From an uncultured archaeon (GTDB lineage Archaea; Asgardarchaeota; Thorarchaeia; Thorarchaeales; Thorarchaeaceae): 64,000 nucleotides of DNA. Below are positions 59,611 to 63,418 of this stretch, in pieces. Position numbers and translations under genes: made by a program. The stretch lies in contig CAZVZC010000002.1 in NCBI GenBank assembly GCA_964631415.1, positions 28,738-92,737 of the forward strand, in the 5' to 3' direction. Position 1 is the first letter of the stretch; the number at the start of each line of letters is the position of its first letter. The notes below the pieces were generated by a model. That model was not told where the DNA came from. It saw only the letters and a program-made list of their open reading frames with translations, and did not search any database.

Positions 59611-60390
59611 CTAGATGCCGCCAAACCACACTCTCTTCTGCGCAGCCATGAGTAGGGCGTCGGCAGTCTTCTTGTCTACACCTATCATGGTGGCCAGCTG
59701 ATCCGGACCAGTTCCGACAAGGTCCTCCACAGTGGCAATGCCTGCACCTATGACGCCTTTTATGATCCCATCAGGTGCACCAATCTCTGTCAGTAGATCC
59801 CTCAACTTCGTCACACTCTTCTCATCGGCCACCGGCGCCGCAACACCCGGCATCTCAGCCTCAATCGATTCTTCCTCGGTATCAGGCTTCGGTTCGACAG
59901 GTACTGGTTTGGCAGGTTCCGCTGCAGATGTCTTCCTTCTTATGAAGGACGGGCGCAGGATAAGAACCCCCAGCAATGGAAGCACGATGAATGCAGGAAT
60001 CAGCAGCACAGAGTCGATTCGGCCACCGATGATACTACCTCCCGGTCCGAGAAACGGCAGACCTTCGACTCCAGCAAGCAACACTTGAAGCCACGAGTCG
60101 CCAGACAGTTCTGTGGCAAGTGCAAACCAGAATGGCGTGAACAGAGCTAGGCCGCCAATCTCGAACAGGAACGCTTCCTTGAGAATGCTCCGACGTGCAA
60201 AGTACAGAATCAAAAGCGGAGCTATTAAGATCACGACGGACACGACAACCCAGATCATGAAGATATCCCAAATCGCCACCAACACATCAGGGTCGGTTTC
60301 ACCCACTCCCATCAGTTTGATGAAAGCACTTACCATGAAAACAATCCCAGGCAAAAGAGCACCGTAGAGAACTCCTAGTGCGTACCTCAA
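59611..60390 (-). CDS. Multi-TM membrane protein with a C-terminal helix-hairpin-helix domain
   Basis: About four hydrophobic helices, an acidic linker, then AGIATVEDL.....QLATMIGVDKKTA HhH motif; GAGGTG SD before TTG 60390. Confidence 0.75.
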   Translation of the reverse strand: MRYALGVLYGALLPGIVFMVSAFIKLMGVGETDPDVLVAIWDIFMIWVVVSVVILIAPLLILYFARRSILKEAFLFEIGGLALFTPFWFALATELSGDSWLQVLLAGVEGLPFLGPGGSIIGGRIDSVLLIPAFIVLPLLGVLILRPSFIRRKTSAAEPAKPVPVEPKPDTEEESIEAEMPGVAAPVADEKSVTKLRDLLTEIGAPDGIIKGVIGAGIATVEDLVGTGPDQLATMIGVDKKTADALLMAAQKRVWFGGI

Positions 60391-60490
60391 GTAGTTACAC
60401 CTCAACCTCTCTGGGGTTGGCTAGTGTCGGTCCACGGACTTAAAGACATTGCGAGAAAAGTGGCCCCGATTCTCCAGACCATCGATGGAT

Positions 60491-60624
60491 GTCCGCGAAG
60501 AGGCGCCAGAAAAATAGCAGGTTCGCTTCGTGGTTGCTTGAGGGGGAAGATGTGTGCATTCTCTGTAGGGAGAACTCGTCGCTGCAGGACGAGAAACGCT
60601 TGATTGGCGCCTCCTCGACAGGAC
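60491..60624 (-). ncRNA. Candidate structured small RNA 1
   Basis: 13-bp closing stem 60496-60508/60605-60617 (fully paired on the minus strand with one G-U); inner hairpins CTCGTC/GACGAG and TTCTC/GAGAA; TATA-like CTATATTT at 60653-60646. Confidence 0.45.
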
Positions 60625-60769
60625 TGTATGTAGAAACTGGAACACAAATATAGACTTTGTGATATATTCGCGACAATTCGGGCACCGTATTGCGAATCCC
60701 GCAGTATCCTCAGCTAGGTCAAGGCGCTAATCGTAACCTTAAATATCGTTCATGACGAGTGGTTTCCAC

Positions 60770-60940
60770 AGAAGAAAGGCACGGGAGTGGGCCTGTTTAT
60801 CACATGATCTCGCTCTTCACTTCCTCCTTCCAGCCGCGTTCTTTCACCCCCGTGCCTTTACGACCCCCCAGTTCTCGGTTGACAGGCCCGCTGATCTGCT
60901 GTATTGTTGTTCGCACCTGCAAGCAGTGTCAACCAACTGA
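60770..60940 (+). ncRNA. Candidate structured small RNA 2
   Basis: TATA-like TTAAATAT 60739-60746; stem AAAGGCACGGG 60775-60785/CCCGTGCCTTT 60849-60859; second hairpin CAGTT..GGTTGACA/TGTCAACC-AACTG 60869-60939. Confidence 0.55.
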
Positions 60941-60991
60941 TGAGTAAATACAGATTACACTTATCTATGAAATATGCGATAATATTAGCTG

Positions 60992-61110
60992 TCTGGGGAC
61001 CTGTGTTCCACTCACGACTCTCTCCTCCTAAGCGAACACGAGTATGCTCTGGAAAATCTCCTCCTTTCTCGAAGGTCCCCACTCACTCATTCTCGTGAGA
61101 GAGAGTGCGG
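60992..61110 (+). ncRNA. Candidate structured small RNA 3 (or the 3' domain of RNA 2)
   Basis: Stem TGGGGACCT 60994-61002/AGGTCCCCA 61073-61081 encloses GTGTTC/GAACAC and GGAAA/TTTCT hairpins with CTCC-rich loops. Confidence 0.5.
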
Positions 61111-61229
61111 CATGATTATGAATACAACTTCGCAACTGAATCGACCTGTTGCTTGACTTCGGCCTCTAGAGCCGAAACCAGCAGCAAGTTTTAAAGGCTC
61201 ATCCAGACGGGCAGCACCAGGAGCCAGAC

Positions 61230-61688
61230 ATGTCAGTAGCAAGGAAAGTGGTTGACAGCACATTTCAGAGAGTCTTAAGCCACATCGGTGAGATTGTGAG
61301 GTCTATCATCCTCCTGATCATCATCTGTATTCCGCTTGCCTATGCCGTGCCGATGTGGATTCAGCACGTTGCGTTTGGCGTACCCTTCTCGAGCCTTATC
61401 ATTGACCCAGTGGCATGGTTTGGGACCAATGGTGCTGTCCTCGTGATCTTGTTGCTTGCGGCCGTAAGCCTGGTTTTAGGATACGCATACGTTTCAAAGA
61501 TGGCCCCGAAGCCAGAGGTAACCCCGTCAGCCAAGAAGACAGCTCCTGAAGAAGAAGGAGCCGAGGAAGAGGAGCCAGAGATCGAAGCTGAAACCGTCGC
61601 CGAAGAAGCAGAAGAAGTGGGCGAAGTAGAGGCTCCTTCGGAAGAGGCAGGCGAGGACGACACAGACACTTCCGACTCGGAGAGCTGA
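61230..61688 (+). CDS. Two-TM membrane protein with an acidic C-terminal tail
   Basis: AGGAG SD, TTTTAAA upstream, two hydrophobic segments, Glu-rich tail. Confidence 0.8.
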   Translation: MSVARKVVDSTFQRVLSHIGEIVRSIILLIIICIPLAYAVPMWIQHVAFGVPFSSLIIDPVAWFGTNGAVLVILLLAAVSLVLGYAYVSKMAPKPEVTPSAKKTAPEEEGAEEEEPEIEAETVAEEAEEVGEVEAPSEEAGEDDTDTSDSES

Positions 61689-61812: not shown

Positions 61813-62640
61813 TCATGCACTCGAAAGGTCGCGCTTAAGGAAAAGTCGCACAACCTCCAGTGCCAAGTCCTTGGATGAGGCAGCAACGAAGGCCATTCTC
61901 TGCTGCATGTCTATCGGGAGCCTGAGTCTTTTGCCAAGCATGTCGACAACATAGCCTTGGCCCTCTACCACCATGTGGGTTCCAGACACATGGACTATAG
62001 GTAGTACTCTCCGAAGGTCAGCCATCGCATCCAAGGCGCCAGTTGCGGTCCAGCAGAGATCGAGCAGGTTGCTGCCACTCCTGCGTATATCCTTCGCTGA
62101 AGATATCACCCTCCGTGAGCCCGATGCGAAGTCGTCATGCCATGGAGCTTTTGTGTCGTAGGAAATGACTGCCTGTGCAAGAGGCTTCGGAGTTGCCACT
62201 CTGGCCGGCTTGCCGTTCCTCTGGAGACCCTTTCCTCTCTGTGCAACATAGGTCTCGTTCGTGAAATATGACTCGATAACACTGATCTCAATGTTGTCTG
62301 TGGTCATTCTTTCGGAAAATGGCACTACGGAGATACCGCCAGAACACAAGGGTATGCCGCGCTCAAGATTGGCAGAACCGTCGACAGGGTCTACAATCGC
62401 GAGGTATTCTGGTTGTCTGCCCGAGTCAATCAGGCCGCGTTCCTCGGTCACAATCATGAATGACGTGCCTGATTCATCCAGCACTCTGACAATCTCATCT
62501 TCAGACACTCTGTCTGCTAACAGTGTCTGGTCACCAAAAGGGTTCATTGTCCCGGTGGTTTCCGACCTGCGAGACAGGTTGTCGACGACCGCTCTGCGTG
62601 CCGACAGCAGTGCATTCTTCAGGATTCGGACGAGTGTCAA
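61813..62640 (-). CDS. Inositol monophosphatase/FBPase family protein
   Basis: GD.T..AD, TEE.G, DPVDGSAN, RRSGS; GGAGGT SD before TTG 62640. Confidence 0.88.
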   Translation of the reverse strand: MTLVRILKNALLSARRAVVDNLSRRSETTGTMNPFGDQTLLADRVSEDEIVRVLDESGTSFMIVTEERGLIDSGRQPEYLAIVDPVDGSANLERGIPLCSGGISVVPFSERMTTDNIEISVIESYFTNETYVAQRGKGLQRNGKPARVATPKPLAQAVISYDTKAPWHDDFASGSRRVISSAKDIRRSGSNLLDLCWTATGALDAMADLRRVLPIVHVSGTHMVVEGQGYVVDMLGKRLRLPIDMQQRMAFVAASSKDLALEVVRLFLKRDLSSA

Positions 62641-62704
62641 TCTGATACCTCCGGTGCTCTGCGTGCGCTGTGGCGTTGTCAGCCACTCAGCGAAGCTCAA
62701 ATCC

Positions 62705-62710
62705 TTTAAA
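62705..62710. promoter_or_regulatory. Palindromic TTTAAA TATA box between the divergent IMPase and Snf7 genes
   Basis: Only AT-rich box in the 118-bp spacer; reads the same on both strands. Confidence 0.45.
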
Positions 62711-62758
62711 TGTGTCAGGGTAGGAGTTCATTCGATAAGGGCAATACCGGTGAAGATG

Positions 62759-63418
62759 ATGGGCTTCCTAAGCGGTAAGAAGAAAGTCGATGCCGAACGG
62801 GGAATCCTCGAGATCAAGGGCACCATGAATGCAATGACGCTGAGGATTCGAAGACTTGAGACACGGATGGGTGAAGAGAGGAAATCCGCAAAGGAGGCGA
62901 TGGCGGAGGGCGACAGGTCAGCGGCGAGATCGCACCTTTCGATTGTGACTGACCTAGAAACCAGAAGAGGAAGATACCACCAGCAATACCTCACTTTGGA
63001 GACCGCGCTCCTGAACATCGAGGAAGCGAAGGACCAGACAGAGGTTCTGAGAGCATTCAAGACAGCCAACAATGCTTTGACACAAGCGAGGGCTATGCTC
63101 AGCCCTGTTGAAATCCAGGCACAGCTGGAAAGGCTGTCTCAGTCATTTGAGCAGATCTCAATCGCCGGCGAACTCCTGTCAGAGGATCTATCAACGACAG
63201 GCAGCACTGTTGAGATGGACGAGAAGGTCGAACGCGAACTGCAGGCTATGGAGGCTGAGATACTGCTTGAGAAGGAGGGAGTGCTTCCACCTCTTCGGGC
63301 AGAGAGAGGAAAACAGCCGGCCGCAAAGAAGACTCCCGAGGAAAAGCGCGTTGACGAGATGCTGGCTGACCTTGAGAGAGAGGCTAAGGAAGAGAGGGAA
63401 AAAGAGGCTCAAGGATAG
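62759..63418 (+). CDS. ESCRT-III Snf7-family protein (Vps20/32/60-like)
   Basis: MGFLSGKKK start, AKEAMAEGDRSAAR..L, L..LE....NIEEA....EVL.A...AN.AL, DE..VEREL..ME acidic tail. The track's 62261 start is an over-extension antisense to the IMPase gene. Confidence 0.88.
   Translation: MGFLSGKKKVDAERGILEIKGTMNAMTLRIRRLETRMGEERKSAKEAMAEGDRSAARSHLSIVTDLETRRGRYHQQYLTLETALLNIEEAKDQTEVLRAFKTANNALTQARAMLSPVEIQAQLERLSQSFEQISIAGELLSEDLSTTGSTVEMDEKVERELQAMEAEILLEKEGVLPPLRAERGKQPAAKKTPEEKRVDEMLADLEREAKEEREKEAQG

Follow-up and report, generated by a model that had tools for sequence, protein, structure and literature searches.

The window, by which we mean the whole stretch of 64,000 nucleotides that was analysed, lies on contig C2 of a 2.16 Mb, 85%-complete Thorarchaeota MAG (G000). 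Between gene A (59611–60405, minus strand), which encodes a membrane protein with a helix-hairpin-helix domain, and gene B (coding sequence 61230–61688, plus strand), which encodes a membrane protein of 152 aa that has an acidic tail and matched no Pfam family, it contains a gap of ~825 bp. An earlier note on this DNA had seen no credible ORF in this gap, and we agree: only ORFs of 30–81 aa are found in all frames, and there is no coding-type conservation. Gene B is a syntenic neighbour of the RNA cluster described below in several genera (tblastn; L003, L004, L006, L007).

Within the gap we find three units of a common design, in which an end-to-end helix of 9–13 bp clamps a pyrimidine-rich stretch of 60–100 nt. 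Unit 1 (60496–60617, minus strand, ~122 nt) is closed by a helix of 13 bp (60605–60617 with 60496–60508), and its loop contains two short hairpins, the pyrimidine tract CAUCUUCCCCCUC, a conserved CAAGCAACCA..GCGAAC block and a run of five U before the 3′ arm. Unit 2 (60775–60859, plus strand, 85 nt) is closed by 11 bp (60775–60785 with 60849–60859) and carries CUUCCUCCUUCCAGC..GUUCUUU in the loop, and unit 3 (60994–61081, plus strand, 88 nt) is closed by the 9-bp helix UGGGGACCU/AGGUCCCCA and carries both CUCUCUCCUCCU and AUCUCCUCCUUUCUC. The earlier note had delimited the same three units, and the stems that it placed there are present, as are the CU motifs that it quoted.

All three units fold better than shuffled sequences, with z-scores of −3.64 for unit 1 (MFE −38.9 kcal/mol, 0 of 200 shuffles as good), −2.29 for unit 2 and −2.49 for unit 3. 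The loops contain about 10% G, and the share of pyrimidines is 62% in unit 1 and 73–76% in units 2 and 3. As a G-poor, pyrimidine-rich loop of this kind cannot fold on itself, it stays single-stranded. In our reading, the conserved feature of the RNAs is this clamped, open pyrimidine platform, and the combination of a clamp with an open loop is an unusual means of keeping a long segment of RNA unpaired. The U run of unit 1 (60509–60520, minus strand, in the window) is nearly invariant in homologues, where four to six U, often in the form AAUUUUU(C)UGG, lie directly 5′ of the 3′ arm. It could be a site for an Sm-like protein or, alternatively, a partial archaeal terminator that gives a shorter isoform without the closing helix.

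Two further features were seen around the arms. Immediately behind the 3′ arm of unit 1, (C/G)CACCUUCA(A) is retained in many genera (e.g. after position 1588 in L024 and after 1597 in L047); this motif recalls the 16S 3′ tail CACCUCC and is absent in the window. In region 60786–60892 of the window, unit 2 could also adopt a different 12-bp helix, AGUGGGCCUG... with ...CAGGCCCGCU, which overlaps the 11-bp closing helix and extends past it; this helix was not reported in the scan of the same-genus MAG G002, where the locus ends at the contig end.

Each 5′ arm is preceded at ~30–36 nt by a TATA-like box, in the window and in other genera, and the boxes of the window are found where the earlier note had placed them. 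For unit 1 this is CTATATTTG (60645–60653, minus strand), ~30 nt upstream of the 5′ arm; with a strict pattern, 21 of 30 loci show such a box at −32 to −40 relative to the start of the unit, and it can be made out in further loci. The box of unit 2, TTAAATAT within CCTTAAATAT (60739–60746, plus strand), is replaced by CCTTAAAT, TTTAAT or TTTATTATAT at the same position in other genera. That of unit 3, CTTATCTA (60961–60968, plus strand; GCTTATATG in other genera), lies ~31–35 nt before the 5′ arm and is kept in G003, G015, G022, G024 and G051.

The flanking genes have boxes of their own, both of which come after the units: TCTTTAAG (60439–60446, minus strand) lies downstream of unit 1 and before gene A, and the conserved promoter box TTTTAAAGG (61189–61197) lies before gene B. 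In G003, gene A is present with its own TATA box and unit 1 is absent, so unit 1 is not simply a leader of gene A, and in other genera unit 1 is present without gene A. We therefore regard the units as separate transcription units.

Some features of the surroundings should also be mentioned. At 61150–61188, in the space that separates unit 3 from the promoter of gene B, there is a short hairpin (UUCGGC-CUCUAGA-GCCGAA) which UUGCU/AGCAA on either side could lengthen; it may serve as a terminator or as a binding site. Further on, a 385-aa ORF (62261–63418, plus strand) contains a Snf7 (ESCRT-III) domain at residues 182–343 and overlaps by ~440 nt an ORF of the inositol-monophosphatase family on the opposite strand (61813–62700, minus strand); the true start of the Snf7 ORF is probably further downstream. 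In g5, g6, g10 and g16, a conserved protein of ~130–150 aa is encoded convergently with unit 1 (L023:1642–2091, minus; L047:1681–2103, minus; L003:1688–2068, minus; L044:1010–1408, plus; L038:978–1427, plus), with its stop ~50 nt from the 3′ arm, and is followed by a HAD hydrolase. R-P-H, a W and P-F..E-V-F are among its invariant residues, no Pfam family was matched, and its AlphaFold model (pLDDT 47.8) is too poor for use. In G000, the sole homologue is distant and lies on a different contig (C40:16225–16515).

Conservation and covariation of the three RNA families

All units occupy the same genomic spot in Thorarchaeota MAGs of one family. The locus of G002 aligns with the window over 535 bp, with 93% identity in unit 1 and 92% in unit 2 and with 55–71% in the spacers between them. 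Homologues of unit 1, collected by BLAST and then with two covariance models, are found in 46 of the 86 family genomes, and in 42 the match has E<1e-5. Strong matches represent 12 of 16 genera; of the 23 high-quality genomes, 16 gave a match. Unit 1 nearly always occurs once per genome, and covariance model searches with units 1 and 3 gave a weak second match in two genomes. The 125 other Asgard genomes yielded a single weak match to unit 1 (G189), which we take to be false as it has no convincing helix. The length of unit 1 varies from ~75–90 nt in g6 and g8 to 120–175 nt in g1, g5, g10 and g16, the longer forms having lineage-specific hairpins inserted in the loop.

The closing helix of unit 1 is paired at 86.8% in a plain MAFFT alignment of 30 sequences, compared with 41–64% when the partner arm is slid. 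Double-sided changes occur in 12 of the 13 pairs, as in the arms GAGAGGCACC/GGUGCCUCUC, GAGGGGCGUC/GACGCCCCUC and GGGGCGCGGGAGG/CCUCCUGCGUCCC, and none of 500 shuffles reaches the observed covariation. For unit 2, 18 homologous sequences from 7 genera lie at the same position; their helix is paired at 80.4%, with double changes in 7 of 8 pairs (0 of 500 shuffles). Covariance model matches to unit 3 are found in 23 of the 86 genomes, and here the helix is 90% paired in 25 sequences with little covariation, its GGGG/CCCC core hardly varying. Support for the helix of unit 3 is thus not statistical; it comes from conservation, from wobbles and from a small number of compensatory changes specific to particular lineages. 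The G-U wobbles in units 1–3 are compatible only with the proposed strands; those of unit 1 (e.g. GGCGUU/GGCGCC) fit only the minus strand of the window.

Measured from the 5′ end of unit 1, unit 2 lies on the other strand at ~145–250 nt and unit 3 at ~330–520 nt, and some g6 genomes have genes inserted between the units. In the 23 genomes with a covariance model match to unit 3, its distance from unit 1 was in every case ~400–500 nt, again on the opposite strand. The units are three distinct RNA families, not one. The genome comparisons establish three independent single-copy non-coding RNA genes, each of which would be transcribed from its own archaeal TATA promoter, and for these families boundaries, strands and promoters are now specified, together with covariance models and a candidate site for a regulator.

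The RNAs are not catalogued in Rfam 15, which gave no match at the gathering score over the whole window and none even at E≤10 over 60300–61300; a tRNA/tmRNA scan found none. We rejected a MITE or dispersed repeat, as the 821-bp region is single-copy and matches only itself in G000, bar one 25-nt match at chance level (E about 0.01). The points that the earlier note had named, Rfam, shuffled sequences, covariation and MITEs, come out in favour of genuine RNAs, with strong covariation in the closing helices of units 1 and 2. In the literature, we found no description of Thorarchaeota small RNAs, nor of regulatory RNAs in Asgard archaea. A pattern scan of metagenomes for transcript-like contigs gave 36 matches, of which 3 were true homologues, all on ordinary genomic contigs, and a generic genome-wide scan for clamp-closed CU loops was dropped because it was swamped by antisense strands of coding regions.

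Operator-like palindromes at the divergent promoters

Two operator-like sequences accompany the promoters of units 1 and 2. A proximal inverted repeat (60657–60673) abuts the TATA box of unit 1; it reads TTGTGA-N5-TCGCGA here, has N3 in most other genera and is found at about −55 from unit 1 in many of them. A distal palindrome (60690–60704), placed between the divergent promoters, reads TTGCGA-ATC-CCGCAG here, a degenerate form of the family consensus TTGCGA-WWW-TCGCAA, and lies at about −86 in most loci, ~31 bp beyond the proximal box. At least one palindrome box is present in 24 of the 30 unit 1 loci; in the window both are degenerate. Searched for in five genomes, the perfect palindrome occurs 0–3 times per genome (backwards control 0), and in three of the five it is found at the sRNA locus.

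Archaeal FFRP sites have the form abcdeWWWedcba (PMC2715240), which the family consensus fits. The arrangement also agrees with that of characterised archaeal Lrp/FFRP operators (Ss-LrpB, FL10, FL11; PMC2715240) in that two boxes stand about three helical turns apart beside a TATA box, but the half-site sequence of the Thorarchaeota boxes is unlike that of each characterised FFRP, and the boxes of the window are degenerate.

Palindrome copies were also seen elsewhere. In G070, perfect copies of TTGCGA-N3-TCGCAA (L053:1501–1515 on contig C12 and L054:1501–1515 on contig C16) precede an 88-aa gene with only the ligand domain of Lrp/AsnC proteins (AsnC_trans_reg domain) and an IorA-like 2-oxoacid:ferredoxin oxidoreductase, and at each site there is a divergent zinc-ribbon protein of 84–99 aa with a weak, sub-threshold Brz-like match. 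Together with the sRNA, these genes may make up a small feast/famine regulon. On contig C5 of G022 (L052:1280–1410, minus strand), two more copies lie beside a candidate clamp-closed, CU-rich RNA, with GGCAGGCC...GGCCUGCC around ~100 nt that contain CUCUCUCCUCCCUCC; this may be a fourth RNA of the clamp type elsewhere in the genome.

From the position and rarity of the palindromes, their FFRP form and their circumstantial link to an Lrp/AsnC gene, we infer control by an Lrp/FFRP-type (feast/famine) regulator. Unit 1 points leftwards and units 2 and 3 rightwards from a shared divergent control region; in the scheme that we propose, the regulator would switch unit 1, and probably unit 2, through the two palindromes ~31 bp apart.

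Possible partners of the pyrimidine loops

We suggest that the RNAs could act in trans, with their open CU tracts offered to purine-rich RNA. The likeliest partners would be Shine-Dalgarno-type GGAGG tracts in a subset of mRNAs, in which case the induced RNAs would lower the translation or stability of these mRNAs. Judged from sequence, pairing with purine-rich mRNA tracts is our best single guess, and we hold it tentatively. If the RNAs do pair with ribosome-binding sites, they would be a rare instance in archaea of small RNAs that control translation globally.

G000 does use ribosome-binding sites of the AGGAGGUG type, as the earlier note had gathered from the genes of the window: genome-wide, GGAGG begins 73 times in the −15..−11 bin against roughly 5–20 times in upstream bins, with crude gene calls. 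UCCUC, CUCCU and CCUCC are 6–11-fold more frequent in unit 1 loops than in shuffled ones, and CCUCC is present in 28 of 30 homologues. The two copies from g1, one of them that of the window, have no exact CCUCC in the loop, which is a correction to the earlier note; units 2 and 3 of the window do contain it. Only 6 of 13 homologues of unit 3 have CCUCC. What units 2 and 3 share universally is CUCUC/UCUCU (13 of 13 for unit 3), and start sites show no enrichment of its complement GAGAG.

The search for targets at Shine-Dalgarno regions that the earlier note had called for gave no enrichment at start regions and no extended target. With heuristic gene calls in this one 85%-complete genome, loop–mRNA duplex energies were no better at 600 start regions than in gene interiors, and perfect complementary runs of at least 7–9 nt were not enriched at start regions. 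A near-perfect complement of the conserved core of unit 1 was found neither in G000 nor in five g6 genomes, except in its own gene. Loop duplexes with the 16S and 23S rRNA of G000 were no better than those of shuffled loops, with the 3′ end of 16S reading N; one 10-nt match between unit 1 of the window and a site near the 16S 3′ end is not conserved. Pairing with the start regions of neighbouring genes was unremarkable (23rd–74th percentile), and Shine-Dalgarno pairing does not account for two features of unit 1, its CAAGCAACCA..GCGAAC block and its U run. Of the undescribed archaeal anti-Shine-Dalgarno sRNA family that the earlier note had proposed, it is thus the uncatalogued, conserved and covarying RNAs with their own promoters that stand, as three families, whereas the mechanism finds no backing in start-region enrichment.

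The main rival to mRNA pairing is that the RNAs are protein sponges or scaffolds, in which an RNA-binding protein, for example one with a KH domain or a SmAP ring of the Sm-like kind, would recognise the UCCUC/CUCUC repeats, a fixed block and a U run in the loops and would be titrated, as CsrA is by CsrB/RsmZ, or assembled into an RNP. We consider this possible and nearly as likely as mRNA pairing. It would account for the long unpaired stretches that are near-invariant across genera, among them parts with no Shine-Dalgarno complementarity (the block and the run of four to six U), and for pyrimidine tracts that tolerate C/U exchanges and indels of CU units while tract length is kept; the lack of an RNA target signal in the tests run, and the existence of three RNAs with several motifs apiece, point in the same direction. 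KH-domain proteins are encoded, but KH and Sm proteins are universal in archaea, which makes their presence uninformative, and no RRM protein was found in G000. No candidate protein is linked to the RNAs by synteny; the conserved neighbour of ~130 aa in other genera matched no family, and its model is poor. If the RNAs do bind proteins, they would point to a new RNP in the Thorarchaeota lineage.

A further reading holds that the RNAs are cores of Y-RNA-like or snRNA-like RNPs, built from a terminal helix, a pyrimidine-rich loop and the Sm-site-like AAUUUUUGG. Asgard archaea are the closest known relatives of eukaryotes, and such particles, bound by Sm-like or KH proteins and placed under feast/famine control, would be Asgard-specific counterparts of eukaryotic small RNPs, either forerunners or analogues of Y RNA- and snRNA-type particles. 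The paired ends and the large pyrimidine-rich loop do resemble Y RNAs, and in nearly all homologues of unit 1 four to six U followed by G lie directly 5′ of the 3′ arm. However, no TROVE/Ro60 gene (PF05731) was detected in G000 and 30 relatives, with control genomes positive, Rfam gave no Y_RNA or snRNA match at E≤10, the stems are perfect and without a bulged Ro-binding helix, and the U run can equally be read as a partial archaeal terminator. We find these particles improbable.

It is more improbable still that the units do not act in trans at all and are DNA-level or cis elements (regulator sites, terminators, insulators) or leaders of the neighbouring genes. In the genus of the window, unit 1 does point to gene A, and units 2 and 3 point to gene B, but both genes have conserved TATA boxes of their own after the units, gene A and unit 1 each occur without the other, and a promoter of its own stands at a fixed distance from every unit; the G-U wobbles and compensatory changes argue for pairing at the level of RNA. 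Finally, hidden small protein genes, for which one could cite ORFs of 54–81 aa that overlap the units and a GGAGG...AUG inside the conserved core on the strand opposite unit 1, are highly implausible and were rejected, as all frames are about as conserved as the DNA in the same-genus relative G002, G024 lacks the putative AUG, the reading frame into which the conserved motif falls differs between genomes, and neither stops nor lengths are conserved.

Relation to known small RNAs

Pairing of the open CU tracts with mRNA, our best guess, has a parallel in the cuckoo RNAs of Alphaproteobacteria (RSs0680/CcsR, SmelC397), which consist of 2–4 adjacent hairpins with CCUCCUCCC in each loop (PMC4615179). 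The two groups share clustered siblings and unpaired pyrimidine motifs, here of the CCUCC type in part of the units, and for cuckoo RNAs pairing with purine-rich mRNA sites has been proposed or shown. The Thorarchaeota units differ in having one end-to-end helix with an open loop, motifs that vary (CUCUC in units 2 and 3) and archaeal TATA promoters, and they come from an Asgard host and have no sequence or Rfam relationship to cuckoo RNAs; CCUCCUCCC is absent from the units of the window. As architecture, motifs and lineage differ, we do not count them as members of this group, although the logic may be alike.

RsaE/RoxS (Rfam RF01820), the C-rich anti-Shine-Dalgarno sRNAs of Firmicutes, likewise are conserved within a lineage and have unpaired C-rich motifs complementary to ribosome-binding sites. 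The units have no Rfam match and no hairpin-plus-terminator architecture, and their complementarity is not enriched at start sites. In the sponge RNAs CsrB/RsmZ, as in the units, a short motif recurs several times in unpaired positions and is shared among sibling RNAs, but the motif here is CU-rich rather than GGA, no partner was found, and we know of no CsrA-like partner in archaea.

Y RNAs, found in eukaryotes and in bacteria as YrlA together with Rsr, are ~85–120 nt long and have a helix of the 5′ and 3′ ends that closes a large pyrimidine-rich loop. The Thorarchaeota units differ from them in that there is no Ro60/TROVE gene as a partner in the 31 genomes, no bulged Ro-binding helix, no tRNA-like module and no Rfam match. 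They do, by contrast, have the terminal helix closing a pyrimidine-rich loop, and in architecture the units are closest to Y RNAs.
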